From: an uncultured bacterium
GTDB taxonomy: Bacteria > Babelota > Babeliae > Babelales > JACPOV01
Reading direction: 5' to 3'
Length of the DNA: 64,000 nt
Assembly: GCA_963744715.1 (NCBI GenBank)
Contig: CAVUUR010000002.1
Span: 1 to 64,000, forward strand
The translations under genes were made by a program, and so were the position numbers. This document shows positions 39,063 to 56,050 of this stretch, in pieces; position 1 is the first letter of the stretch; each line of letters opens with the position of its first letter. The notes beneath the pieces are model-generated. The model ran no database searches and was not told the origin of the DNA. It saw only the letters and a list, made by a program, of their open reading frames with translations.

Positions 39063-39569
39063 TTATAGATAATTAATAAGCATACATAACGCCATCACTG
39101 CCATTAAAATATCTTCAAATACGGTTACGTAGGTCATTGGCAATTTAAAAACGGTACCCAAGCAAGCACATGGTATGACCTCTTTTTTTTGCAGTTGTTG
39201 TATAACCCCAACGCTACTAATAACCATAACGAGTATCGTTATACTATTGGTCATTATCGGATACACACGAAATGCGTAGAGAATACCCAGTGTAATTTCA
39301 ATAAGGGGATACATATATGCATAGATGGTACTGCGTTTCGCAACGATATCATACATGGTATAGGCCTGAACAAAACCTGACCAATTAAATAATTTAAAAG
39401 ATCCAAATATTAAAAAAAAGGCTGCCATAAAATCATTCATACCCCGAGCAATACTAAAGCCATGATACCATTGTAATCCACCGGTAATGGCTATAATAAT
39501 TGCAAAAATAATACCAAGCGGTATGAAATCAGAATAGTTAATATTCGATGTACTATTCACTTGTGCCAT
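39063..39569 (-). CDS. MauE/DoxX-like membrane protein
   Basis: FMAAFFLIFGSFKL, YDIVAKR, YPLIE and CACLG motifs. Confidence 0.75.
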   Translation of the reverse strand: MAQVNSTSNINYSDFIPLGIIFAIIIAITGGLQWYHGFSIARGMNDFMAAFFLIFGSFKLFNWSGFVQAYTMYDIVAKRSTIYAYMYPLIEITLGILYAFRVYPIMTNSITILVMVISSVGVIQQLQKKEVIPCACLGTVFKLPMTYVTVFEDILMAVMALCMLINYL

Positions 39570-40056: not shown

Positions 40057-40088
40057 TTGACACATAAGCATGCATCTTTATAGATTAG
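40057..40088 (+). promoter_or_regulatory. Repeated promoter of propeller cassette 1
   Basis: TTGACAcataagcatgcatctttaTAGATT; recurs at 42260, 44412 and 46631. Confidence 0.7.
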
Positions 40089-40151
40089 ATTCAATACAAA
40101 TTGAATGAAGTAACTTTATAAATAAAATAATAAAAAAAGGAGTCAAAACTG

Positions 40152-41444
40152 ATGAAATTTTGTAAAATCTTATTGGTGCTCTGTGCCCAATATTTTATTG
40201 CTCAGCCACTCATGGCATCTCCCTTTGCCTTTGTAACCAATTTTGGTGGCGGCGCTGGTACCACTGTTACTCCCATTGATACGGTAACCAATCTTGCAGG
40301 AGCCCCCATTACAGTAGGAGACGCCCCCCAAGGTGTAGCCATTACCCCAAATGGACTGTTTGCTTACGTTCCTAATCTGGTTTCTTCTAGCGTGTCAGTC
40401 ATAAATACAATAACTGATCTTGTAGTCGCTACCGTACCACTAACTGGTCAGGTTGATCCAGCCTATGTAGCCATTACTCCTAATGGACTGTTTGCTTATG
40501 TTACCAATGCTGGGTCGGGTACAGTTTCGGTTATTAATACCACAGATAATCTGGTAGTTGATACTATTACCATCGGGGCAGGACTAGTACCTCAAGGCAT
40601 AGCAATTACACCCGATGGAACAAAGGCCTATGTAGCTATTGAATCGCCCGTTGCCAGTGTTGCTGTTATTAATACTACAAACAATACAGTGGCTATGGAT
40701 ATTGTTACAACAGCTACTGCACCTTATGCCGTAGCGATTACGCCTAATGGAGCAACCGCTTACGTTACCGATAGGGGCGGTGCGGCCGTTATACCAATAA
40801 CTATAGCAACCAATACCCCAGGAACTACTATTGACTTGGCCGCAGGATCAGAACCTCAAGGTATAGCTATCACTCCTAATGGACTATTCGCTTATGTTAC
40901 TAACACTATTGCTGCCGGTACGGTTACACCAATAACCATAGCAACTAATACGGTAGGAACTCCTATTGCTTTAGGCGCAGGAACAATTCCTTTTGGTATA
41001 GCTATCACTCCCGATGGAAACTTAGCGTATGTTGTTGAAAATGGTTTAAATCGCGTAGCAATTATCAATATTCCAGCCAATACGTTAAGCGCTACCACCG
41101 TTGCTGTAGGAGTTGGACCGGACAACATAGCGATTACCCCTGTTATTCCGCCATTAGCTTTTATCGGTGTCATTCAACGCAATATATTCCTGAACGTAAT
41201 TGAATGTATTCTTACCATGACATGGGTGCCAAGCCCTACAACCAACGTTGTGGAATATCAGATTTTCAGAGACGGTGTGTTGTTCGCTACCATTCCAGCA
41301 ACAAGTCCTTTAGTGTTTACAACCGGTCTTGGTTGTAATGATGCTGGGGCAGGATTTACCATCGCAGCGATCGATTCAAATGGTATAAGCAGTATCCAAA
41401 TACCGTTAGTTATACAACCAGGACCTACACGACCCTTAGTATAA
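40152..41444 (+). CDS. YVTN/YncE-type beta-propeller surface protein 1 with FN3-like C-terminal domain
   Basis: Signal peptide; seven AITP[ND]G..AYV-type blades; CTD with W...Y.IFR.G...F.IAA.D..G. Confidence 0.9.
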   Translation: MKFCKILLVLCAQYFIAQPLMASPFAFVTNFGGGAGTTVTPIDTVTNLAGAPITVGDAPQGVAITPNGLFAYVPNLVSSSVSVINTITDLVVATVPLTGQVDPAYVAITPNGLFAYVTNAGSGTVSVINTTDNLVVDTITIGAGLVPQGIAITPDGTKAYVAIESPVASVAVINTTNNTVAMDIVTTATAPYAVAITPNGATAYVTDRGGAAVIPITIATNTPGTTIDLAAGSEPQGIAITPNGLFAYVTNTIAAGTVTPITIATNTVGTPIALGAGTIPFGIAITPDGNLAYVVENGLNRVAIINIPANTLSATTVAVGVGPDNIAITPVIPPLAFIGVIQRNIFLNVIECILTMTWVPSPTTNVVEYQIFRDGVLFATIPATSPLVFTTGLGCNDAGAGFTIAAIDSNGISSIQIPLVIQPGPTRPLV

Positions 41445-41485
41445 GAAGTAGAGTAACGTAGTAATGAATAATATAAGGAACCATT

Positions 41486-42088
41486 ATGAATAAAATTATC
41501 GCAAGAACCCTACCAATTTTATTACTTCTCAACGTCCATGCCTTTTATGCAACCGACTGGTGCTCCGATGTTAAGGTACGTTCTTCAGCTTTTATTCCGC
41601 AATCTAAACTCTTCAAACATATTTATGGAAACGTTGCGGCAACCATTCAAATCGAAGGCGCAACCAATCTCTTTAGATGGGTTGATGGTTGGGCTAATTT
41701 TACCTGGCTTTCTAAAAATGGTCATTCTATAGGATTACACAGTCGTACCAAAATAAATATTGCTAACTTCAGTTTTGGTTTAAAAGCTCCTTGGGAATTC
41801 CATGATTCTTTTATCGCTTATATTGGCATCGGGCCTGCCTTTGCAAAAGTCTGGTTGCATAATCATTCTGTTGTTACCAAAAAACATGTTTCAAAAACAT
41901 CATTTGGGCTCGTAGCAAAAAGTGGTCTCTATTGCTTTATCACTGATAATTTATTCTTCGACATCTTCCTTGATTATACCTATCTACCAACTCATTTCAG
42001 AAAACAAATTATTGCTGGCGTTACCCGTAAACATCACCCTAATGTTGGTGGCGTTATGCCGGGCGTAGGCTTCGGTGCTGCTTTCTAA
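41486..42088 (+). CDS. Small outer-membrane beta-barrel protein 1
   Basis: Signal peptide; alternating amphipathic strands (AYIGIG, FFDIFLDY); C-terminal GVGFGAAF. Confidence 0.8.
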   Translation: MNKIIARTLPILLLLNVHAFYATDWCSDVKVRSSAFIPQSKLFKHIYGNVAATIQIEGATNLFRWVDGWANFTWLSKNGHSIGLHSRTKINIANFSFGLKAPWEFHDSFIAYIGIGPAFAKVWLHNHSVVTKKHVSKTSFGLVAKSGLYCFITDNLFFDIFLDYTYLPTHFRKQIIAGVTRKHHPNVGGVMPGVGFGAAF

Positions 42089-42105
42089 TCTATATTGCAA
42101 TAACA

Positions 42106-42144
42106 AGAGCCGTGACTAAAAAAATCTTAGTCACGGCTCTCTTT
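42106..42144 (+). terminator. Intrinsic terminator of cassette 1
   Basis: agagccgtgactaa...ttagtcacggctct. Confidence 0.8.
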
Positions 42145-42259
42145 ACTTTATACATAATCTAGAATGGGCCATTATATTAACGTACAAAAATAGTAATTAG
42201 CGGGTCTTGCTAAAGCAAAACTCATAATGGCACTCAATAAAATATTATTATAGTTTTAC

Positions 42260-42290
42260 TTGACACTTAGTAATCTATCTTTATAGATTA
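42260..42290 (+). promoter_or_regulatory. Repeated promoter of cassette 2
   Basis: TTGACActtagtaatctatctttaTAGATT. Confidence 0.7.
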
Positions 42291-42351
42291 TTTCATATAA
42301 ATGAGCGAAGCAACTTTATAAATAAAACAATAGAAAAAGGAGTCAAAACTG

Positions 42352-43647
42352 ATGAAATTTTATAAAATTTTATTGGTGCTCTGCGCCCACTATTTTATTG
42401 CACAGCCACTCACGGCAGCCCCCTTTGCCTATGTAACAAATTATAATGATGACGCTGGTACCACCGTTACTCCTATCGATACGGCAACCAATACTGCAGG
42501 CGCCGCCATTACGGTAGGAACAGGCCCTCAAGGTGTGGCAATTACTCCTGATGGTATGTTTGCTTACGTTGCTAATTTTACGACTCATTCCATATCGGTC
42601 ATAAACACCCTTACTAATGAAGTAGTTGCCACTATACCACTAACCGGTCAATCCGACACTGCTTATGTAGCCATTACTCCTAATGGAGAATTTGCTTATG
42701 TTACCAATGCTGGATCCGGTATGGTTTCAGTTATTAATACCGCAATGAATGCGATAGTTGATACTATTACCATCGCCGGGACACCATCAGTTCAAGGCAT
42801 AGCAATTACGCCCGATGGAACAAAGGCCTATGTAGCTATTCAATCGCCCGTTGGCGATGTCGGTATTGCTGTTATTGATACAATAAACAATACTCAATCT
42901 TTTACTATTTCTTTACCAGGTACTGCTCCCTACGCCGTAGCAATTACTCCTAATGGAACTACTGCTTACGTTACCGATAGAGCGAATTCTGCCGTTATAC
43001 CAATAACCATAGCAAACAATACAGCAGGAACTCCTATTCCTTTGACAGCTTTAGGAGACCCTGTAGGTATCGCGATTACTCCCAATGGACTTTTTGCTTA
43101 TGTTACAGATACCAATAATAATAATGTTACACCAATAACCATAGCAAACAATACAGCAGGAACTCCTATTGCTTTAGGCACAGGAACATTGCCTTTTGGT
43201 ATAGCTATCACTCCCGATGGAGCGCTAGCGTACGTTGTTGAAAGTGGTTTAAATCGCGTAGCAATTATCAATATTTTAACTGATACATTAATTGCTACCA
43301 CTATCGGTGTAGGAGTTGGACCGCACAATATAGCAATTACCCCTGTTATTCCGCCATTAACTTTTATTGGTGTCATTCAACGCAATATATTCCTGAACGT
43401 AATTGAATGTATTCTTACCATGACATGGGTGCCAAGCCCTACAACCAACGTTGTGGAATATCAGATTTTCAGAGACGGTGTGTTGTTCGCTACCATTCCA
43501 GCAACAAGTCCTTTAGTGTTTACAACCGGTCTTGGTTGTAATGATGCTGGGGCAGGATTTACCATCGCAGCGATCGATTCAAATGGTATAAGCAGTATCC
43601 AAATACCGTTAGTTATACAACCAGGACCTACACGACCCTTAGTATAA
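42352..43647 (+). CDS. YVTN beta-propeller surface protein 2
   Basis: Same architecture as 40152; CTD essentially identical. Confidence 0.9.
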   Translation: MKFYKILLVLCAHYFIAQPLTAAPFAYVTNYNDDAGTTVTPIDTATNTAGAAITVGTGPQGVAITPDGMFAYVANFTTHSISVINTLTNEVVATIPLTGQSDTAYVAITPNGEFAYVTNAGSGMVSVINTAMNAIVDTITIAGTPSVQGIAITPDGTKAYVAIQSPVGDVGIAVIDTINNTQSFTISLPGTAPYAVAITPNGTTAYVTDRANSAVIPITIANNTAGTPIPLTALGDPVGIAITPNGLFAYVTDTNNNNVTPITIANNTAGTPIALGTGTLPFGIAITPDGALAYVVESGLNRVAIINILTDTLIATTIGVGVGPHNIAITPVIPPLTFIGVIQRNIFLNVIECILTMTWVPSPTTNVVEYQIFRDGVLFATIPATSPLVFTTGLGCNDAGAGFTIAAIDSNGISSIQIPLVIQPGPTRPLV

Positions 43648-43688
43648 GAAGTAGAGTAACGTAGTAATGAATAATATAAGGAACCATT

Positions 43689-44291
43689 ATGAATAAAATT
43701 ATCGTAAGAACCCTACCAATTTTATTACTTCTCACTATGCATACTTTTTGCATAACGGACTGGGTTGCTGATGTTAAGGTACGTTCTTCAGCCTTTATCC
43801 CACAATCTAAACTCTTCAAGCATATTTATGGAAACGTTGCGGCAACCGTTCAAATTGAAGGCGCGGGAAATCTTTTCAGATGGGTTGATGGTTGGGCAAA
43901 TTTTACCTGGCTTTCTAAACATGGCCATTCTATAGGATTACATAGCGGTACCAAAATAAATATTGCTAACTTCAGTTTTGGTTTAAAAGCTCCTTGGGAA
44001 TTCCATGATTCTTTTATTGCTTATATTGGTATCGGGCCTGCTTTTGCAAAAGTTTGGTTGCATAATCATTCTGTTTGTACCAAAAAACATGTTTCAAAAA
44101 CATCATTTGGCCTTGTAGCAAAGAGCGGTCTTTATTGCTTCATAACGGATAATTTATTCTTTGATATTTTCCTTGATTATACCTATCTACCAGCACATTT
44201 CAAAAAACAAATTATTGCTGGCGTTACCCGTAAACACCATCCTAATGTTGGTGGCGTTATGCCGGGTGTAGGCTTCGGCGCTGCATTCTAA
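43689..44291 (+). CDS. Small outer-membrane beta-barrel protein 2
   Basis: Close paralog of 41486-42088. Confidence 0.8.
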   Translation: MNKIIVRTLPILLLLTMHTFCITDWVADVKVRSSAFIPQSKLFKHIYGNVAATVQIEGAGNLFRWVDGWANFTWLSKHGHSIGLHSGTKINIANFSFGLKAPWEFHDSFIAYIGIGPAFAKVWLHNHSVCTKKHVSKTSFGLVAKSGLYCFITDNLFFDIFLDYTYLPAHFKKQIIAGVTRKHHPNVGGVMPGVGFGAAF

Positions 44292-44312
44292 TCTATACAA
44301 TAACGCAATAAC

Positions 44313-44349
44313 AAGAGCTGTGACTAAAAAATCTTAGTCACAGCTCTTT
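44313..44349 (+). terminator. Intrinsic terminator of cassette 2
   Basis: aagagctgtgactaa...ttagtcacagctctt; compensatory C-G to T-A change relative to cassette 1. Confidence 0.82.
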
Positions 44350-44411
44350 ACTTTATAAAAAAATTGCACATCCATCTGTTAAAAAATATAATTACTAACA
44401 CTGTAGTAATC

Positions 44412-44443
44412 TTGACACTTAATGATCTATCTTTATAGATTAG
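44412..44443 (+). promoter_or_regulatory. Repeated promoter of cassette 3
   Basis: TTGACActtaatgatctatctttaTAGATT. Confidence 0.7.
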
Positions 44444-44498
44444 ATTTCATGTAAATTGAGTAGCAGTTTTATACATAATAAAAAAGGAGTCAAAACTG

Positions 44499-45835
44499 AT
44501 GAAACTTCATAAAATTTTATTGACACTCTGTGCCCACTATTTTATTGCGCAACCGCTCATGGCCGCGCCATTTGCCTATGTAACCAATTCTGAAAGCAAT
44601 AATGTTACACCTATTAATACGGCAACCAATGTTGCAGGAGTTAATTTTACATCACCAGCTCCTTTTGGTATAGCATTTACTCCGGATGGCAAAAGAGTGC
44701 TTGTTGTTAATGCTCCGGCTGTTCCCGGTACCGTTAGTATTTATGACGTATTAAATAATAATGCTTTACTCTTTACCGTAAATCTCCCTGAGGGCGCTCA
44801 ACGTTTAGCGATTACTCCCGATGGTACCTTAGCGTATGTATCCTCAAGCCTCAGGTACCGATGTTTCAGTTATTGATCTGACCCTTGCTACCCCCGTAGT
44901 TATTACTACTTTTAATGGAGGAAATAACCCTCTAGCGGTAGCGATTACTCCCCATGGAACATTAGCCTATATAACTGATTCAACTATAGGTACTCCTGCA
45001 GTTAGAGTCTTTTCAGTTCCATCAAATACCCTTGTAGCTACTATTTCTACCGGTTTTGTAGCAGGTGCTGGTCTTCGCGGTGTAGCCATTACTCCCAACG
45101 GAGAATTCGCTTACGTTACCGATTTTATAAATGGGGTAGTCTATCAAATACCCATTACAGGTCCCGATGCTAACACGATAATCGACACAATTCCTGTGGG
45201 GAGCCGGTCCACAATTTATAGCAATTACCGCTGATGGTCTATTTGCATTTGTGACTAATTCCGGCGGCAATAGTGTAAGCCAAATAAATCTCGTAACAAA
45301 TTTACAGGTCGCTGGTAGTCCTATTACCCTGCCTTCCCCCGTAGGAGATCCTTTTGGCATAGCCATTATTCCCGTTCCTAATGGCGGCGCAACCCATGCT
45401 TACATTGCTGATAATTTAAATGCCAGGGTTGTCATTCTTGATATCCCAGCGAGCTCGCCGGTTACTTTAGCTGCATTCAGCACCACTACGGTGGATGTAG
45501 GAACCTTTCCTTTCGATATAGCAATTACCCCTGTTATCCCGCCATTAACTTTTATCGGTGTTATTCAACGCAATATATTCCTGAACGTAATTGAATGTAT
45601 TCTTACCATGACATGGGTGCCAAGCCCTACAACCAACGTTGTGGAATATCAGATTTTCAGAGACGGTGTGTTGTTCGCGACCATTCCAGCAACAAGTCCT
45701 TTAGTGTTTACAACCGGTCTTGGTTGTAATGATGCTGGGGCAGGATTTACCATCGCAGCGATCGATTCAAATGGTATAAGCAGTATCCAAATACCGTTAG
45801 TTATACAACCAGGACCTACACCGCCATTAGTATAA
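44499..45835 (+). CDS. YVTN beta-propeller surface protein 3 (two frameshifts)
   Basis: ORFs 44499-44876, 44836-45234 and 45251-45835 join into the paralog architecture. Confidence 0.85.
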
Positions 45836-45876
45836 GAAGTAGAGTAACGTAGTAATGAATAATATAAGGAACCATT

Positions 45877-46479
45877 ATGAATAAAATTATCGTAAGAACC
45901 CTACCAATTTTATTACTTCTCACTATGCATACTTTTTGCATAACAGACTGGGTTGCTGATGTTAAGGTACGTTCTTCAGCCTTTATCCCACAATCTAAAC
46001 TCTTCAAGCATATTTATGGAAACGTTGCGGCAACCGTTCAAATTGAAGGCGCGGGAAATCTTTTCAGATGGGTTGATGGTTGGGCAAATTTTACCTGGCT
46101 TTCTAAACATGGCCATTCTATAGGATTACATAGCGGTACCAAAATAAATATTGCTAACTTCAGTTTTGGTTTAAAAGCTCCTTGGGAATTCCATGATTCT
46201 TTTATTGCTTATATTGGTATCGGGCCTGCTTTTGCAAAAGTTTGGTTGCATAATCATTCTGTTTGTACCAAAAAACATGTTTCAAAAACATCATTTGGGC
46301 TCGTAGCAAAAAGTGGTCTCTATTGCTTTATCACTGATAATTTATTCTTCGACATCTTCCTTGATTATACCTATCTACCAACTCATTTCAGAAAACAAAT
46401 TATTGCTGGCGTTACCCGTAAACATCACCCTAATGTTGGTGGCGTTATGCCGGGCGTAGGCTTCGGTGCTGCTTTCTAA
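45877..46479 (+). CDS. Small outer-membrane beta-barrel protein 3 (mosaic of copies 2 and 1)
   Basis: 5' part matches copy 2; 3' part and terminator match copy 1. Confidence 0.8.
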   Translation: MNKIIVRTLPILLLLTMHTFCITDWVADVKVRSSAFIPQSKLFKHIYGNVAATVQIEGAGNLFRWVDGWANFTWLSKHGHSIGLHSGTKINIANFSFGLKAPWEFHDSFIAYIGIGPAFAKVWLHNHSVCTKKHVSKTSFGLVAKSGLYCFITDNLFFDIFLDYTYLPTHFRKQIIAGVTRKHHPNVGGVMPGVGFGAAF

Positions 46480-46496
46480 TCTATATTGCAATAACA

Positions 46497-46534
46497 AGAG
46501 CCGTGACTAAAAAAATCTTAGTCACGGCTCTCTT
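46497..46534 (+). terminator. Intrinsic terminator of cassette 3
   Basis: Same hairpin as 42106. Confidence 0.8.
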
Positions 46535-46630
46535 ACGTTTTTACGTACGCAAATAAGCGCTAAACCAAAACTTATAATGGCACTCAATAAAATATTATTA
46601 AGTATTCATACAACGTTATTATAATTTTAC

Positions 46631-46660
46631 TTGACACATAAGCATGCATCTTTATAGATT
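46631..46660 (+). promoter_or_regulatory. Repeated promoter of propeller 4
   Basis: TTGACAcataagcatgcatctttaTAGATT, same as 40057. Confidence 0.7.
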
Positions 46661-46726
46661 ATTCCATATAAATTGGATGAAGTAATTTTATAAATAAAAA
46701 AAATAACAAAAAAAGGAGTCAAACTT

Positions 46727-48014
46727 ATGCAACTTCGTAAAATTTTATTGGCACTCAGTGCCCAATACTTTATTGTGCAACCGCTCATGGCAGCCCCCTT
46801 CGCTTATGTGACCAATGGCAATGACAATAATGTTACACCTATTGACCTTGCAACTAATACTGCACTAGATACTATTGCTGTTGGAGCTGGACCTGAAGGA
46901 ATAGCTGTTTCTCCCGATGGAAGATTTGCTTATGTAGCTAATAGCGCTGCTGATACCGTCTCGATTATTAATCTATCAACTAATATGGTAGTTGCCACCC
47001 CCGCCGTAGGCGCCATTCCCTATGGTGTTGCTACCGCACTCAATCCTAATGGACAACAATTTGCGTACGTTACTAATTCAAATGCTGCTAGTGTTTCAGT
47101 TATTAGCGTTGCAAGCAATACGGTGGTCGATACCATCACCTTAACAGTATCAGATCTCCGAGAGATCGCTACTACTCCCGATGGCACATTAGCCTATGTG
47201 GCTTCCAGTAACACCGGTACTCCGGGGGTTTTTGTCATTAATTTAATAACTAACGCGCAAATTGATTTTATTGCTTTTACGGGTGGCGTAACTCCCGAAC
47301 CCACTGCGGTAGCCATAAATCCTAGTGGAACATTTGCTTACGTTACCGATATCGCCAATGAGAACGTTACACCAATAGTATCCCCGGCAATGTTAAAGGC
47401 ACTCCCATTCCTTTAGGTGCAGGAGCTGCTCCCGAAGGAATAGCAATTACGCCTAATGGACTTTTTGCGTATGTTGCCGATGAGGACGGTGAGAATGTAA
47501 CGCCAATTAATCTTACAACTAATATACCCGGGACACCCATCGTTTTTGCAGGAGGAAGCCCATTTGCCCTAGCAATCACTGGGGATGGTACAAAAGCTTA
47601 TGTTGTTGAAATCAATGGTGACCGCGTGGCAATCATCAATATTCTAAATGATACCCTAAGCGGCACCACCATCACCGTAGGCGCCAGTCCATTTGACATA
47701 GCCATTGCCCCCCCTATGACACCATCAAATTTTATCGGCGTCATCCAAGAAAATATATTTTTGAATGTTATTGAATGCATCCTTACCATGCAATGGCTTC
47801 CAAGCCCTTCAACGGACGTTGTAGAATACCAAATTTTCAGAAATGATGTATTAATTGCGACCATTCCAGCAACAAGTCCTTTAGTGTTTACAACCGGTCT
47901 TGGTATGAACGATGCTGGGCAGGATTTCTTCTTGTAGCAATCGATTCTATGGGAGGAGAAAGTATGCCAATACCATTAGTCATACAACCAGGCCCTTCAT
48001 TATTTGAGCTATAA
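46727..48014 (+). CDS. YVTN beta-propeller surface protein 4 (frameshifts near 47380 and 47920)
   Basis: Blades and CTD continue across frames to ...VIQPGPSLFEL with stop at 48012-48014. Confidence 0.85.
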
Positions 48015-48019
48015 TATTC

Positions 48020-48062
48020 AAAGTAAGCCAGCCATTATTAATTGTAATGGCTGGCTTACTTT
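48020..48062 (+). terminator. Intrinsic terminator
   Basis: aaagtaagccagccatta...taatggctggcttacttt. Confidence 0.8.
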
Positions 48063-48208
48063 GCCATGTACTACAAAACTTATTGAATAGTTCGTATACT
48101 AAAAAAGCTACAATAGCTTACCTGACCGATAATTATGCATCTCTATACAGTATATTCTAAATAAAAACATTATTTTGATCTGCCAAAAAAAAAGGAAGTA
48201 CCAAGCTC

Positions 48209-49487
48209 ATGAAATTTCATAAAATATTACTAGTATTTTGTGCGCACTATGGTATGTCTCAACTTCTCATGGCATCGCCATTTGCCTACGTAACCAATAC
48301 GGGTAGTAACAATGTAACCCCCATTGATCTTGCAACCAATATTGCGGGAGATCCTATTACCGTAGGCAATGTGCCTGATAGTGTCGCTATTACTCCCGAT
48401 GGAAGATTCGCTTATGTTACCAATAATAGTGATGAAACTGTTTCGGTTATTAGCACTATAACCAATACGGTAGTTGACCTTATTGAGGGGCTCGGTAATT
48501 TACCTTCCGGTATTGCCATCACTCCCGATGGGCAATTCGCCTATGTTGCTAATACCGGCGATGATACGGTATCGATTATTGATATTGCAACTAATATGGT
48601 AGTTGGCCTGCCTATCAACGTTGGCACTTCTCCTTTTGGCGTTGCTATTACTCCCAATGGGCAATTCGTCTATGTTGGCAATACTGCCAGCAATACGGTC
48701 ACGGTTATACAAGTTTCGGATAATGCGATAGTTACCAATATTTCTTTACCCGATGCTAGAAACCTAAGGGATATAGCTATTACTCCCGATGGCACACTAG
48801 TTTATGTAGTTTCTGGCGGGTCACCAACCCATGCCGGCGTCGCTGTCATTCAAACATCAGATAATACTGAACTTCCTTTTATCTCCTTTTCACATCAACT
48901 GCCCCTTTTGGGATAGCCATAACTCCGGATGGAACATTAGCCTATGTTACTGAAGGAACTACTTCTAAAGTCATCCCCATAAGCATCCCCGATAACACTC
49001 CTGGAATCACAATTAATACGCCAACATCACCTCGAGGAATAGCTATTAACCCTAACGGGCAAAGAGCTTACGTTGTTGAGAATGGCTCGAACAACGTCAC
49101 GCAAATAAATATTCCAGCCAATACCGTAAGTGGTACTCTTATTAACGTAGGAACGGCGCCCCTTCAAATTGCTATTACGCCGGTTATCACGCCATCAAAT
49201 TTTATTGGTGTTATCCAACAAAATAAGTTTTTGAATGTAACTGAATGTATTTTAACTATGCAATGGGTTCCGAGTCCTGAACCAATATTGTTGAATATCA
49301 GATTTTTAGAAATGATATATTGTTTGCCACCGTCCCCGCAACAAGCCCTGCAGTGCTTACCATTGGTCTTGGCTGCAATGACGCTGGTTTAGGTTTTACC
49401 ATTGTAGCCGTCGATTCAAATGGTCTCAGTAGTATTCCAGTAGCCTTAGTGATACAACCGGGACCTGCACCATTATTTTTACAATAA
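48209..49487 (+). CDS. YVTN beta-propeller surface protein 5 (frameshifts near 48900 and 49280)
   Basis: ORF 48209-48916 followed by GIAITPDG blades and CTD ending VIQPGPAPLFLQ with stop at 49485-49487. Confidence 0.82.
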
Positions 49488-49505
49488 AAAAAGGAATAAG
49501 AACTA

Positions 49506-50816
49506 ATGAAACTGCATAAAATATTATTAATACTCTGTACACAATACGTTGTTGCTCAATCGCTCATAGCGGCGCCATTTGCTTTCGTAACTAATAATGG
49601 CAGTGCCAACGTTACCTCCGTTGATATTGCAAGTAATATAGCAAATGCCACTATTATCGTTGGATCTGGCCCCCGAGGAGTAGCTTTTACTCCCGATGGA
49701 AGATTCGCTTACGTAGTTAATAGCACCGATGCTACGGTTTCAGTTATTAATACTCTAACCAATATGACCGTTGGTTTGCCTATTACGGTGGGTAACGTGC
49801 CTTTCGGTGTAGCTATTACTCCTAATGGACAATTCGCTTACGTTACCAATTCGGGTGCTAGTACTATTTCAGTTATTAGTGTATCAACCAATATGGTGGT
49901 TGATACCATTCCGTTAACAACGCCAAATCCTCATGGCATCGCCATTACCCCCGATGGCAGCTTGGCGTATGTAGCTGGAGGTAATGCAACCACTCCGGGT
50001 GTCTTTATCATTAATTTAACAACTAACGTGGAAGATACCTTTATTCCTTTTCCGGCCGGATCAGATCCTTCCGCTGTAGCGATTACCCCTAATGGGCAGT
50101 TTGCTTACGTTACTGACAGTCTCCATAACAACGTTACACCAATTCCAATTCCCGGAGTTACCCTAGGTTCGACTATTACGGTAGGAACTGAACCCGAAGG
50201 CATAGCAATTACCGCTGATGGACAATTTGCTTATGTTACTAATTTTCTTAGTAATAATGTAACCCAAATAAATCTTGCAACGAATTTACAGGTTGCTGGT
50301 AGTCCTATTCCTTTGCCTACCCCCGCAGGACAACCTCTCGGCATAGCAATTGTTCCTGTGCCTAACGGCGGCGCAACGCAAGCTTATATTGCCGATTTTG
50401 AAAACGCCAGAGTGGTGATTCTCAATATTCCAGCTAGCTCGCCGGTTACTCTCGCTACATTCAGCAGTACCATGGTTGGTGTTGGTACACAACCATTTGA
50501 GGTAGCAATTACACCGGTTATTCCTCCATCAAGTTTTATTGGCATTATTCAGCAAAATATATTCCTGAATATAACTGAATGCATTCTTACAATGCAATGG
50601 GCTCCAAGTCCCACAACCAATATCGTGAACTATGAAATTTTTAAAAATGGTGTATTGTTTGTCACCATTCCAGCAACAGGCCCTTTAGTGTTTACTACGT
50701 GTCTCGATTGTAATGATGCTGGTACAGAATTTACGATCGCAGCAGTTGATTCAACTGGCGCGGTAAGTATTATGGTGCCAATAGTAATACAACCTGCATC
50801 AACGCTCATAGTATAA
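49506..50816 (+). CDS. YVTN beta-propeller surface protein 6
   Basis: Intact 436-aa ORF with the same architecture. Confidence 0.9.
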   Translation: MKLHKILLILCTQYVVAQSLIAAPFAFVTNNGSANVTSVDIASNIANATIIVGSGPRGVAFTPDGRFAYVVNSTDATVSVINTLTNMTVGLPITVGNVPFGVAITPNGQFAYVTNSGASTISVISVSTNMVVDTIPLTTPNPHGIAITPDGSLAYVAGGNATTPGVFIINLTTNVEDTFIPFPAGSDPSAVAITPNGQFAYVTDSLHNNVTPIPIPGVTLGSTITVGTEPEGIAITADGQFAYVTNFLSNNVTQINLATNLQVAGSPIPLPTPAGQPLGIAIVPVPNGGATQAYIADFENARVVILNIPASSPVTLATFSSTMVGVGTQPFEVAITPVIPPSSFIGIIQQNIFLNITECILTMQWAPSPTTNIVNYEIFKNGVLFVTIPATGPLVFTTCLDCNDAGTEFTIAAVDSTGAVSIMVPIVIQPASTLIV

Positions 50817-50839
50817 AAAATATAATGTGGTTTTCATAC

Positions 50840-50880
50840 ATGAGTCGTTACTGAAATTTCAGTAACGACTCATTTCCTTT
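50840..50880 (+). terminator. Perfect palindrome, probable terminator
   Basis: atgagtcgttactgaaatttcagtaacgactcat followed by ttccttt. Confidence 0.78.
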
Positions 50881-51035: not shown

Positions 51036-51863
51036 ATGAAGAAAAAAGTATTATTAATCATTGTTTCGTTGATGATGACAACAAGACCCGATGATTATAA
51101 TTCAATGGTTCCACAAAATGCTACCCTTGATGCATGGGTTGCTGATTGGACTCCTATTATTCAAATAGGTATCGGCACCGTAACCATTAAAAACACAACT
51201 CAACCTTATTTTTTTAATAAATATAAATCAAAATATCTTCACAGTGGGCTTAATACGTTAAATCAGGTTAATGCTGGCCCAACACAACAATTCGGAGCTG
51301 GTTTATTTGCCTCCGGAGAATCTTTTCTAGAAAGCGATTTCTTAACTGATGCGGGAGGAAAAGCGGTATTAACTCCAGTAGGAAGTAACAATACGGTAGT
51401 AACATTTTATGTTGATCAACCCAATCCTGATAATACTGCAAGAACTATTATTATTATCGCTAAAAACAGTATTTCAACGGATAAATCACAAGAGCCTCTT
51501 GTGATGGTTAACTCAATCAGTATAGACCTTGAAACTTTAATGCGTTATCTAGGCGGATATCTTTTTAATAGGTTTCCATGGACTACTCAAGTACCGTTCA
51601 TGCGTTCTGCTACAAAACTGCTTAATATTACTTTTAACCCAGCAATAGCTATAAAAATAATAGTGCTTAATCTTACTTTTGATGCCGTTACTGCTGATAT
51701 CACATTAGATTCTATTGATCTACGGTATGGTTCATTAAACTTCAATCCCGGAAGTGTCTCTAGCTGGAAAACAGCCCCTCAGTATAAAATAACACCATGG
51801 TTATTGAACCAAGGTATTGGCATAACCGTTTTACCTAATATTGATTTAAGTCAAACTAAGTAA
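51036..51863 (+). CDS. Hypothetical secreted protein
   Basis: Signal-like N-terminus; 275-aa ORF. Confidence 0.65.
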   Translation: MKKKVLLIIVSLMMTTRPDDYNSMVPQNATLDAWVADWTPIIQIGIGTVTIKNTTQPYFFNKYKSKYLHSGLNTLNQVNAGPTQQFGAGLFASGESFLESDFLTDAGGKAVLTPVGSNNTVVTFYVDQPNPDNTARTIIIIAKNSISTDKSQEPLVMVNSISIDLETLMRYLGGYLFNRFPWTTQVPFMRSATKLLNITFNPAIAIKIIVLNLTFDAVTADITLDSIDLRYGSLNFNPGSVSSWKTAPQYKITPWLLNQGIGITVLPNIDLSQTK

Positions 51864-52253: not shown

Positions 52254-53651
52254 TTAATGACTAAATTTTTTAATCATAGCCAGTAAGTAATCACAGTTCG
52301 TTCTCAACGTTCGTTCTTGCGTAGCAAAATTAACTGCATAAATACCGTGCTTATCCCGGTATCCTTTGCGCCAGCAAAAACAGTCCATCAGCGTCCAAAA
52401 AAAATAACCACGGACATCATAGCCCTCCTGCAAAGCTCTTGAAATAACATATAAATGTTTTTTTATATATTCATCTTTAATCTGCACATTTTCCGTTGAA
52501 CAGCCATTTTCGGTTATGTACATAGGAACATTAAGTACTGCTGCCATTTGAATTGCGCGATACAATCCTTCAGGATACATTACCTTAGCAGCTCTACCTG
52601 GACTTGGCTGATCTATTAATGTTTCTGATTCTCGCGGCTCAGTTTTTAAACTCAGTATATTAGTTTGTTTAATGGTTGTATGCGAATAATAATTAATACC
52701 TATAAAATCAAGTGATCCCGGCGCATCAGCATTATAATCTTTCACCAAATACATCCAATTAAAATAACCAGTTTTAAAAAAATCGATCGTTAAGGTATTA
52801 ACAATGTAATCAAACGTATGCGCAACAATATTCTCTAGAGGATTCCAGGTATGATATGCATCAAGTGGCTGAATAATATGCGCAATACCTATTTTTACAT
52901 TTCTATTAATACCACGAAATATTTTTGCAACGGTAACGTGAGCATTTAATTGATTACGAGCAACTTTGCCCGCTAAGCGTAAACTTGTTTTACCGGGAGG
53001 ATAATTACCGCGATAATATCCCTCAAGAGCATAACCAACCGGTTCATTTAAAATAATCCAAAATGGCACTTTAGTATGTAAATGAGTAAAAACATACTGG
53101 GAAAAACGAACAAAAAAATTAATATTTTCTCTTTTTTCAAATCCCTTTTTTTTCAAAAACCATAATGGATAGATATGATGAAATAACGTGATAATAGGAA
53201 CAATATGCTGGCCAAGCAGTTCATCAACCACCTGACAATAATGTTGCATTGCTTGATGATCAAAAACGCCTTCTTGAGGCTCAATTTTACTCCACTCAAT
53301 AGAAAAACGATAACTATTCATACCAATATTTTTTAATAGTTGCACGTCAGATTTATAACGAGTCCATCGTTCACAGGCGGCACCAACGCGTGATTCGGGT
53401 GCAATCAAATCTGCATTGCGCAATTCATATTCTGTCCAACTATTTTGTATTGTTCTACCGTTGCTGGTAATAATTCCTTCTGTTTGTAGAGCAGAATCAG
53501 AACATCCCCATAAAAAATGTGGTGGGAATAAAACTTCAGTTGTATTAATGGTATTCCAATCCCACCGTAATTCTTCAGCATAGATAGTATTTATAGAACT
53601 ATATAACCCCATTAACGTGTAAACAATAATTATTCTGTTTCCCCTATACAT
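52254..53651 (-). CDS. Glycoside hydrolase family 1 (beta-glucosidase-like) with N-terminal signal
   Basis: FPPHFLWG, YRFSIEWSKIEP, catalytic NEP and ITENG, GYFFWTLMD. Confidence 0.93.
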   Translation of the reverse strand: MYRGNRIIIVYTLMGLYSSINTIYAEELRWDWNTINTTEVLFPPHFLWGCSDSALQTEGIITSNGRTIQNSWTEYELRNADLIAPESRVGAACERWTRYKSDVQLLKNIGMNSYRFSIEWSKIEPQEGVFDHQAMQHYCQVVDELLGQHIVPIITLFHHIYPLWFLKKKGFEKRENINFFVRFSQYVFTHLHTKVPFWIILNEPVGYALEGYYRGNYPPGKTSLRLAGKVARNQLNAHVTVAKIFRGINRNVKIGIAHIIQPLDAYHTWNPLENIVAHTFDYIVNTLTIDFFKTGYFNWMYLVKDYNADAPGSLDFIGINYYSHTTIKQTNILSLKTEPRESETLIDQPSPGRAAKVMYPEGLYRAIQMAAVLNVPMYITENGCSTENVQIKDEYIKKHLYVISRALQEGYDVRGYFFWTLMDCFCWRKGYRDKHGIYAVNFATQERTLRTNCDYLLAMIKKFSH

Positions 53652-53902
53652 GATTCCCCCCCTCACCCGTTATCATGAGAAATCTCTCATTAACTCATGA
53701 TCAGTTGGTGGTAAGTATAGAAAAAACGTTCAATACAAAGCAATATTTGTAATTTATTTATTAATAAAAACAATAAATTTTTTCACTTATATGAAATTAT
53801 TTTTTGATGTATCAAAAAATAACGTCATTCTAAATATTTTTTTTATTTTTTTAATTACACTTGTACAATGGTAACTAGTAATAACCATAAGGAACTTTTC
53901 CC

Positions 53903-54725
53903 ATGAACACACAACAGCGTTCTTCTGCAGCACCACGAAAAAAAATTGGTATATTTGATTCCGGGAATAGGAGGACTAACTATTCTAAAGGCACTCATAC
54001 CAATATTGAACAATGTTGATTATTATTATGTTGCCGACACGGCTCATATGCCTTACGGCAATAAATCCCCAGAACAGATTACGTTATTAAGTACCAATAT
54101 GGTCACTTTTTTATCTAATTTGGATATACATTGCTGTATTAATGCGTGCCATACTATTGCAGCAACAGCACACAACAATCTTGCTAATCTTTTTAACCGC
54201 ATTCCTTTTTTTGAATTAGTTAGTACCACGGCACAGTACGCGGCAACACAAACAAAAAAAGGCATTATTGGTATTGTTGGCACCAACGCCACTATTGCAA
54301 CCCACGCGCATGCACAAGCGCTCAAATCTATCAATTCTTCATGTACGGTTATTGAGCAAGCATGCCCTCGTTTGGCATCGGCTATAGAATATCATTATGA
54401 TCAACCGGATTATATACGCGCTATTGTGCAGGAATATTTTTTGCCATTACGCACCAAAGGCGTTGACTGTATTATTTTAGCGTGCACTCATTATCCATTG
54501 GTCCTCGATAGTATTAAAGAAGTTATTGGTAATGATATTATTTTGGTAACAGGGCAAGAAACTATAGCCTCTTTAGTAGCAGTTCAAGCCGTTTCAACCG
54601 AGCATTATTCAATATTACCCACTATTAATTTTTTTGTTACCGACAACTCCGAGGAATTTGCAAAAAAAAGCAGTGCGATCATACCGTGGCCATCAACAAC
54701 TATTACTCCTATTACGCTCACATAA
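53903..54725 (+). CDS. murI: Glutamate racemase (1-nt frameshift near 53963)
   Basis: KIGIFDSG from ATG 53903, then IGGLT, PYGNKS, ACHT and LACTHYP. Confidence 0.92.
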
Positions 54726-54850: not shown

Positions 54851-56050
54851 ATGAAGCGCATTTCACTCTATACAACTACATCGTTTTTGCTTATTTTCCA
54901 ATTTTTTTTACCGTTTCATTGCTATGGCCACGGCTTTGATGGCAATACCCTCGTTAGCATTGTAGATCAATCGGTAGATCTGTATCCAATACGCTTAGTA
55001 TGTGAAGATGTAGTAGAAGATGGACAATCGATTATTAGTTTTGATTTTGCTAAAGAGGCATGTGTTAAACGAACTATTCGATCTGCGGGAAGAACTGAAA
55101 CCGATTATCATGTTGCAATTTCTTTTAATGATGAATGGTGGGAGGATATTACCTGCACAGCAACACAAGAATTTTATGTGGTGCATACTCGGCAATGGAT
55201 TCCTGCGTATCAATTAAAAATCGGCGATATTTTATTTTCTAAAGACCATGAAGTAAAAAGAATTTCTAAGATTAGGTTTTTTAAAGAACCGCGCACCGTT
55301 TATGCAATCCATGTTAAAGGCACGCATAATTTTTTTGTTGGAACCAACCAAATTTTAACGCATAATATAGTTTTGCCGGCTATAAGTATTGGTTTAGGAA
55401 TTGCTTTTGGTACCGGTGCAGCAGCTGGCGGCAGTATGGGTGGTGTATTGGGACCCATTACGTTAAGTTGTGGCGCTATCCTCGGTGGTCTCTTTGGCAT
55501 AGGAATAAAAAAGTTCTTTGGCCCAGCAGATGTGCCTTGTTATCATCTTGAATTACACACACCAGCTTTTAGTGCACATTTGCAAAAAAATAATGATGAA
55601 GCAGATCATACAAAAAGAACTCTCAAGATTCCTGAACAAATAGCAATTGGTGAATGTGGTGGTTCTCCAGATCCTGAAGACCCGTGGAAAAATAAAGAAA
55701 AATACAAAAAACAACGTTGGGATAATGCGCCCCAAGAATCCGATGAAAAACTCAGAAAAGCAATAGAATATGCTACAAATGAAAATAAGCTTATTCATTT
55801 TTTTAACAAACCAAAACATGGTCTGGATAATTTGCTAGACAAAATGGGTGGGAAAAATAATATTGATGCTCAAAAAGAGATTGTTAACCAGGTAGTAACA
55901 GAATTAATGAAATTAGATAATCTGCCAAAAAATGGTGAATTTGATGGTATCTTAGTGAATGTAGCAGGTTCTGTTATTTATACTAGAGGTCTTATTCATG
56001 AAGGTACTATTAAAATGGGAACTATGTTTATTCGAAAAAACATGGGTTAA
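54851..56050 (+). CDS. Secreted Hint-domain polymorphic toxin with Ntox35-like C-terminal domain
   Basis: Signal peptide; Hint from GFDGNTLV to HNFFVG...THN; Gly-rich hydrophobic segment; C-terminal H...KH...GT.FI motifs. Confidence 0.8.
   Translation: MKRISLYTTTSFLLIFQFFLPFHCYGHGFDGNTLVSIVDQSVDLYPIRLVCEDVVEDGQSIISFDFAKEACVKRTIRSAGRTETDYHVAISFNDEWWEDITCTATQEFYVVHTRQWIPAYQLKIGDILFSKDHEVKRISKIRFFKEPRTVYAIHVKGTHNFFVGTNQILTHNIVLPAISIGLGIAFGTGAAAGGSMGGVLGPITLSCGAILGGLFGIGIKKFFGPADVPCYHLELHTPAFSAHLQKNNDEADHTKRTLKIPEQIAIGECGGSPDPEDPWKNKEKYKKQRWDNAPQESDEKLRKAIEYATNENKLIHFFNKPKHGLDNLLDKMGGKNNIDAQKEIVNQVVTELMKLDNLPKNGEFDGILVNVAGSVIYTRGLIHEGTIKMGTMFIRKNMG

Follow-up and report, generated by a model that had tools for sequence, protein, structure and literature searches.

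The window analyzed here is a 64,000-nucleotide stretch of contig CAVUUR010000002.1 from an uncultured Babelota bacterium (GCA_963744715.1). It carries an array of six paralogous YVTN propeller genes (P1 to P6) and three genes of a small outer-membrane barrel (B1 to B3), all on the plus strand, with the barrels behind the first three propellers. We found that the pairing of the propellers' C-terminal domain with this barrel is real and general, being widespread in two protist-associated phyla. We consider it probable that the partners form a two-part surface-anchoring system, in which a hairpin of the domain would dock on the barrel and the passenger would be anchored, export being carried out by another machine. 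In this proposal we infer the direct binding, the membrane side, the export route and the adhesin role.

Linkage of domain and barrel across genomes

Co-occurrence and adjacency of the domain and the barrel in other genomes had been predicted by the first-pass annotation of the window. We searched 261 Babelota genomes, all of one order, and an even sample of 300 Chlamydiota genomes, one of which was not scored. A pair was called adjacent when a barrel match lay at most 400 bases downstream on the same strand, after removal of six domain matches that were repeats or pieces of the same gene. Within Babelota, the domain was detected in 50 genomes, the barrel in 64 and both in 45 of the 261, the barrel being present in 45 of the 50 genomes with the domain versus 19 of the 211 without it. 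The barrel was directly downstream in 54 of 127 domain matches, from 39 genomes, where a rough calculation gives an expectation of approximately 0.3 adjacent pairs. Conversely, the domain was directly upstream of 44 of the 50 best barrel matches. In Chlamydiota, we observed the domain in 123, the barrel in 140 and both in 111 of the 300 genomes; the system was not found in the genomes of about 1.1 Mb listed in that sample. A search with the alpha subtype of the domain only, which overlaps the earlier sets, recovered a barrel directly behind in 31 of 43 loci. Overall, the predicted linkage was recovered in Babelota (54/127 matches), in Chlamydiota (111/123 genomes with the domain) and among these loci (31/43). 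Where informative, the locus labels read Chlamydiota or Babelota, and several read Verrucomicrobiae, Pseudomonadota or plain bacterium. The genome of the window itself contains two further pairs: a domain-bearing propeller with a barrel about 26-27% identical, and a domain-less propeller with another barrel.

The first-pass annotation had also anticipated fusion of the domain to other passengers, and many unrelated kinds were found. Passengers range from none to 14 TIG repeats, with lengths up to 1758 amino acids (aa) and folded Ig stalks. Those directly upstream of barrels include YVTN propellers, TIG/PKD, DUF11 and carboxypeptidase-regulatory repeats, beta-helices and Big_1, and other domain-bearing proteins carry DUF5122, Big_9/cadherin or the long TIG series. 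Four small proteins of 127-164 aa (L038:1907-2299, L212, L229 and P0094) consist of little besides a signal peptide and the terminal domain, one of them directly before a barrel; they are possibly caps for empty barrels.

The terminal domain, the barrel and their matching subtypes

The model of P1, built with 71 sequences (predicted local distance difference test score, pLDDT, 95.7; predicted TM-score, pTM, 0.93), consists of a seven-bladed propeller of 28 strands and a small beta-sandwich. The closest structure to the propeller is the archaeal surface-layer protein 1L0Q, and it also matches BtuG and YncE. In the sandwich, strands 1 and 2 (residues 313-324 and 327-337) are 12 and 11 residues long versus 6-8 for the others, F324-L325-N326 is placed at the turn between them, and N322 and F324 are nearly invariant. 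Sequence searches group the sandwich with fibronectin type III (Fn3) domains (PDB Fn3 matches from E 2e-6; PF00041 in 6 of 78 domains), and the Fn3 assignment combines these matches with the sandwich seen within the whole-P1 model. For the 78 domains, which are those covering the domain start among the best 150 matches, no specific named family was found in Pfam or NCBIfam at E 0.01, the matches being of fn3 type. The best match of the domain lies within 29 residues of the C-terminus in 77 of the 78, and the remaining protein has a further copy there. In tandem Fn3 proteins, an aromatic-Leu pair occupied the hairpin tip in 13/13 last copies versus 1/31 inner copies (13 proteins, some of them paralogues, one more being skipped by the pattern). 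An aromatic residue is found at this position in 80 of 83 barrel-adjacent domains. In the Fn3 geometry, the A-B turn sits at the pole of the C-terminus and faces away from the passenger; this would account for use of the motif by the last repeat only. Overall, the tail of these proteins is an Fn3-like domain with a lengthened hairpin and a terminal-only motif, and it behaves like a signal.

The model of B1 (100 sequences, pLDDT 94.1) is a barrel of 178 residues with 8 strands and no periplasmic domain. Its fold matches OmpW (TM-score 0.78), OmpA (E 3e-9) and NspA, and the barrel profile matches OprG (E 1.5e-4), the best fold or sequence matches being OmpW, OprG and AlkL. The OmpW family PF03922 was matched at E 0.01 by 11 of the 100 barrels, B1 itself not among them, and none of the 100 matched Omp85, SlipAM/DUF560 or PorP/SprF. 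The first-pass annotation, which had recognized no named system, was right in that no named family was found to cover the domain or the barrel. Its view of the barrel as an anchor rather than a channel is likewise supported, since a barrel of 8 strands lends itself more to anchoring than to the passage of folded proteins. Conserved positions assigned to the outside are F14, I24-Y25, G57, S59, T66, N104 and S106, and the strands hold the conserved charged residues E8, K78, K123 and D137.

According to the upstream gene, 158 distinct barrels were divided into 90 with a domain gene, 24 with a protein ending in an [ED]-x-[MAL]-W-L tail, 24 with another open reading frame (ORF) and 20 with none. 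The domains fall into subtypes, with motifs such as N-x-F-G for alpha and N-x-F-L-x-Q-x-D for beta, and each subtype has its own barrel clade (FastTree support of 97-99 for alpha, beta, epsilon and zeta). Barrel and domain distances were correlated (r 0.79 over 83 pairs, the best of 999 permutations reaching 0.10; 0.65 for cross-phylum pairs), and the nearest barrel shared the domain subtype in 78 of the 83. Because neighbors are inherited together, matching without adjacency is the stronger evidence. Genome G002 combines a single barrel from the gamma side with 12 domain genes at scattered positions, and the nine domains that were read were all gamma (9/9). In G195, with two barrel clades, 14/14 unlinked domains that were read belonged to those two types, and the barrel-first operons L060, L165, L174 and L182 keep the clade-subtype match. 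A separate observation concerns L028 (G062), where a glycine-rich passenger, of a kind usually bearing the alpha hairpin, has a beta-like N-I-F-L and the barrels found there are of the beta and tail classes; this may be a single case of signal switching.

The tail-class barrels form one clade with a support of 100, containing the 24 tail rows and 4 others, one of which is a tail missed by the pattern. The tail was upstream of 19 of 22 independently found barrels of this clade, on YVTN propellers, delta-60/DUF5122 propellers and a GH130-like protein. A second signal type is present, the sister barrel clade pairing with a short [ED]RMWL tail instead of the Fn3 domain. The genome of the window has an Fn3-less YVTN propeller ending in ERMWLK before a separate-clade barrel (L002:6079-7798, G000:C6). 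In addition, the second loop of the tail-class barrels themselves contains T-x-F-L, faintly reminiscent of the hairpin motif.

The pair of the window is gamma. Its nearest Chlamydiota pairs are 46% identical in the barrel and 46% in the domain, versus about 26-27% and 31% for the second pair of its own genome; these identities therefore suggest that the cassette was exchanged between Babelota and Chlamydiota.

A possible mechanism, its alternatives and known systems

Babelota have inner and outer membranes and a protist-parasitic life, as described in the excerpt of PMC6561590. In the proposed system, the passenger would cross the inner membrane via Sec and then fold, and the barrel would be inserted in the outer membrane by the machinery of beta-barrel assembly (BAM). 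The A-B hairpin of the last Fn3 domain, with its exposed N-x-aromatic-Leu/Gly tip, would dock at the extracellular mouth of a matching-clade barrel, and the variable part (propeller, Ig stalk or beta-helix) would be held outward, probably contacting the protist host. This reading supports the first-pass annotation, in which the domain had been proposed as a docking or sorting module bound by the co-transcribed barrel. Barrel-less genes such as P4-P6 would use barrels of the same clade in trans, as subtype matching suggests. The sister barrel clade would read the short [ED]RMWL tail, whose W-L would plug the outer mouth of the barrel. Barrels of the OmpA/OmpW type with 8 strands cannot pass a folded protein of 400 residues. 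Because the barrel is too narrow for a folded propeller, passage through the outer membrane would need a separate machine, most simply a type II secretion system; the genome has two GspD-like secretins, GspF-family genes and two Omp85 genes.

Several observations weigh against such a partnership. No barrel lies directly behind 73 of the 127 domain matches, 44 of the 158 barrels have no signal-bearing gene directly upstream (a few being rule misses or barrel-first operons), and 5 Babelota and 12 Chlamydiota genomes, which are drafts, have the domain and no barrel match. Shimodaira-Hasegawa-like support of the gamma clade is only 94 (FastTree). Two genomes are mismatched: G262 has gamma and beta domains (L094, L159, L160) and three barrels outside both clades, and G261, where three alpha-like domains (L157) occur, yielded no alpha barrel. 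The genomes are not independent, and co-inherited neighbors would be expected to yield the distance correlation and much of the adjacency without binding. In favor of the proposal, conservation of the barrel is lowest in its short periplasmic turns (0.52), for 0.59 outside and 0.72 in the membrane, but the gap between outside and periplasm is small and concerns positions that we assigned from the strand list. Finally, both secretins match GspD best yet fall under the GspD cut-off.

In a bolder version, which we regard as rather unlikely, the 8-stranded barrel would read a portable C-terminal signal (Fn3 hairpin or five-residue tail) and, with BAM, the translocation and assembly module (TAM) or a further outer-membrane protein, would both export and retain the passenger. 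This secretion-and-display pathway would have the smallest known sorting receptor, on a cassette passed between Babelota and environmental Chlamydiota. Less likely again is a split autotransporter, in which the domain would engage the barrel during folding by BAM/TAM and the passenger would exit via a hybrid barrel, the barrel being part of the export route and also the anchor. One-to-one operons, in which several genes overlap or nearly touch, point to stoichiometric coupling, and beta-helix passengers, weak matches of the domain-bearing P0055 and P0074 to the PATR autotransporter-passenger family and the two Omp85 genes are in line with such a route. However, the finished barrel has 8 strands, many passengers are unlinked to any barrel, and passengers reach 1758 aa, with folded Ig stalks. 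We also doubt that the two genes lack any direct partnership, a secreted-protein gene travelling with an ordinary small porin or adhesin as a cassette and the hairpin being a general secretion signal only. Lone barrels and lone passengers are common, G261 and G262 are mismatched, and cassette inheritance would explain the congruence of the trees. By contrast, unlinked genes in G002 and G195 and barrel-first operons are subtype-matched too, and the [ED]RMWL tail occurs on passengers of three unrelated kinds, in every case before a barrel of one clade. Equally doubtful is an uptake pair, with the propeller as a ligand-binding lid or periplasmic binding protein and the barrel as an OmpW-like small-molecule channel: despite the best barrel matches (OmpW, OprG, AlkL) and the propeller matches to YncE and to BtuG, which covers a B12 transporter as a lid, passengers in many cases are long stalks of repeats or lack ligand domains (L038, L212, L229), the conserved barrel interior is charged and the best propeller match is a surface-layer protein.

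We then compared the anchoring system with known ones. In type B of T9SS (type IX secretion system), a cognate barrel gene lies directly downstream, pairs are specific, orphan cargo shares an orphan barrel, and the barrel is a proposed anchor, according to excerpts of PMC12618676 and PMC9143113. The likeness with this system of Bacteroidota (SprB-SprF, PG1035-PorP) extends to the Sec signal, the conserved C-terminal domain (CTD) of about 100 aa, the barrel gene directly downstream and orphans served in trans, which here is suggested by subtype matching. However, 0/78 domains match TIGR04131/CHU_C (Pfam, NCBIfam, E 0.01), the domain here being Fn3-like, 0/100 barrels match PorP/SprF, and the hosts are Babelota and Chlamydiota. 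The PorP/SprF barrel has 14 strands, and that found here 8. The SprA translocon gave no match in the genome, which is 86% complete, and the control genomes were silent too. No OmpW/OprG/AlkL or OmpA/NspA barrel is, to our knowledge, known with a dedicated docking-domain protein as partner; the 8-stranded fold is shared with these proteins, at only 10-14% identity. In two-partner secretion (type Vb), the partner is an Omp85 barrel with POTRA domains, whereas here the short barrel has no Omp85 match. The Methanosarcina surface-layer protein 1L0Q (YVTN propeller plus PKD) is archaeal, matches in the propeller only and has no barrel partner. TraA/TraB is an operon of a receptor and a barrel; a peptidoglycan-binding domain is present in TraB, and there is no portable Fn3 tag. 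The type XI secretion system (T11SS, Slam), in the excerpt of PMC12282271, resembles the present system in its variable N-terminal effector, shared C-terminal domain and neighboring outer-membrane partner. It differs in both parts, since its cargo domain is an 8-stranded barrel (TbpB-like) and its partner a translocon (excerpts of PMC12282271 and PMC13721041), whereas here the domain is a beta-sandwich with Fn3 matches and 0/100 barrels match SlipAM/DUF560. A SlipAM search of the genome was blank, the controls being likewise silent. In Myxococcus, the surface adhesin CglB is held by the small outer-membrane barrels GltA/B/H (excerpt of PMC11761067), a similar arrangement of an adhesin on small barrels, but CglB is a lipoprotein of a multi-protein motility complex and has no portable Fn3 tag. 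For outer-membrane proteins of chlamydiae, the excerpt of one survey (PMC2811131) contains an OmpW cluster, and the word propeller is absent from that excerpt. The domain-barrel pairing was not found in the literature searched, supplements being outside its scope. Overall, the system would work like T9SS CTD/cognate-barrel anchoring with unrelated parts, and its domain and barrel are members of none of the T9SS, T11SS or type Vb families tested.

The array, its surroundings and their meaning

The features of the array are presented in Table 1. Three complete promoter-propeller-barrel-terminator units followed by three barrel-less propellers had been described in the first-pass annotation; the layout stands, and unit 3 is not complete as assembled, P3 being frame-broken. 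Its description of six propellers with a Sec signal, variable blades plus a C-terminal domain that is conserved agrees with six signal-peptide-like N-termini, judged by eye, and six domain copies, one per propeller. TIGR02276 YVTN repeats scored 67.6 and 74.9 bits in the two intact propellers scanned, for a curated cut-off of 27.85. As also described, the three 200-aa barrel ORFs each end in GFGAAF, and the mature propellers are poor in Lys/Arg (1 Lys and 3-5 Arg in P1, P2 and P6). The reported Lys/His richness of the barrel holds for B1-B3 (13-14 Lys, 10-11 His) and not for the family, whose conserved barrel columns include no His, so that loops rich in Lys/His are a local feature. Strong hairpin terminators lie 3' of B1-B3 and of P6. 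The promoter site of P5 is degenerate and P6, which starts 18 bases after P5, has none; with 51 promoter-like sites across the region versus 53.7 in shuffles, there is no excess, and these sites are credible solely because they recur in register before four genes.

Table 1. Positions of the array features within the window.
Feature	Position	Strand	Basis or remark
Promoter-like site, unit 1, sigma-70-like (TTGACA-18-TAGATT)	40057..40086	+	Repeat family D16
P1, 430 aa: signal peptide, 7-bladed YVTN propeller, terminal Fn3-like domain	40152..41444	+	
P1 terminal Fn3-like domain, subtype gamma	41142..41441	+	
N-I-F-L at tip of long A-B hairpin of P1, proposed docking motif	41181..41192	+	Conservation, model strands, terminal-only
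B1, 200 aa, 8-stranded outer-membrane barrel, terminal Phe	41486..42088	+	
Intrinsic terminator-like hairpin, unit 1	42106..42140	+	
Promoter-like site, unit 2	42260..42289	+	Same TTGACA-18-TAGATT site
P2, 431 aa, propeller and terminal domain	42352..43647	+	Final fifth 100% identical to P1 DNA
B2, 200-aa barrel	43689..44291	+	
Terminator-like hairpin, unit 2	44313..44348	+	
Promoter-like site, unit 3	44412..44441	+	Same TTGACA-18-TAGATT site
P3, two frame changes	44499..45835	+	Late blades like those of P6; terminal domain shares 98-99% identity with P1/P2
B3, 200-aa barrel	45877..46479	+	5' part B2-like, 3' part B1-like
Terminator-like hairpin, unit 3	46497..46531	+	
Promoter-like site ahead of P4	46631..46660	+	Same TTGACA-18-TAGATT site
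P4, propeller and terminal domain, two frame changes, no barrel gene behind	46727..48014	+	
Inverted repeat 3' of P4	48021..48061	+	Read from sequence; absent from terminator scan list
P5, propeller and terminal domain, two frame changes, no barrel gene	48209..49487	+	
P6, 436 aa, intact propeller and terminal domain, no barrel gene	49506..50816	+	
Terminator-like hairpin at array end	50840..50873	+	

Only P1, P2 and P6 are single ORFs, P3, P4 and P5 changing frame twice each. Since the enolase gene of the same genome is likewise split, into three pieces in different frames, sequencing or assembly errors are a fair explanation, and the breaks in P3-P5 may be sequencing errors. Together with enolase, other housekeeping-like genes are frame-split (G000:C3:659-1909, L002:2997-4188), and the assembly seems indel-rich. 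At the DNA level, P1, P2 and P3 share 98-100% identity over their final fifth versus 55-90% for the blades, so that the domain-plus-barrel end appears to stay uniform as the propellers diverge and are shuffled. P3 resembles P6 more closely in its late blades, and B3 is a mosaic of B2 and B1; this pattern may be a mis-join of near-identical repeats in the assembly. Contig C1 has 61% GC and the start of C6 (L001:1-1350) reads as high-GC foreign DNA, for 35% in the genome, a likely contamination or chimeric join.

Around the array, we identified a MauE-like membrane protein (39063-39569), of which a similar gene is also found behind the barrel in L065, a 275-aa secreted-looking protein directly after the array with no Pfam or NCBIfam match (51036-51863), a GH1 glycosidase (52254-53666) and an Asp/Glu racemase (53946-54725). 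At 54851-56050, an ORF of 399 aa has a start of signal-like character, contains a pretoxin HINT domain and is followed by a small ORF, in a polymorphic-toxin-like layout. Elsewhere, a Legionella_OMP-family barrel gene (PF05150; family tested for L006) adjoins some loci (L006:2-877, L157:3-560). One protein of 299 aa (L001:2429-3328, G000:C6), signal-like at its start and ending in Phe, has no Pfam or PDB match and is present in 95 of the 261 genomes. In the 50 genomes that have the system as well, a domain or barrel match is found no more than 5 kb from 13 of its 71 copies, for approximately 1.7 expected; it is possibly an accessory outer-membrane protein, or this may be mere island clustering.

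Both Babelota and the environmental chlamydiae live obligately in protists, and knowledge of the surface that they display is scant. Through the domain, a large and as yet unnamed group of exported proteins (50/261 and 123/300 genomes) can be recognized as a likely surface repertoire, and clade-subtype matching predicts the assignment of passengers to barrels. If the proposed anchoring is true, it would represent an independent invention of the T9SS-like logic of a CTD plus a cognate barrel, with a far smaller barrel, and the signal of one clade, of about five residues, could serve as a compact display tag.

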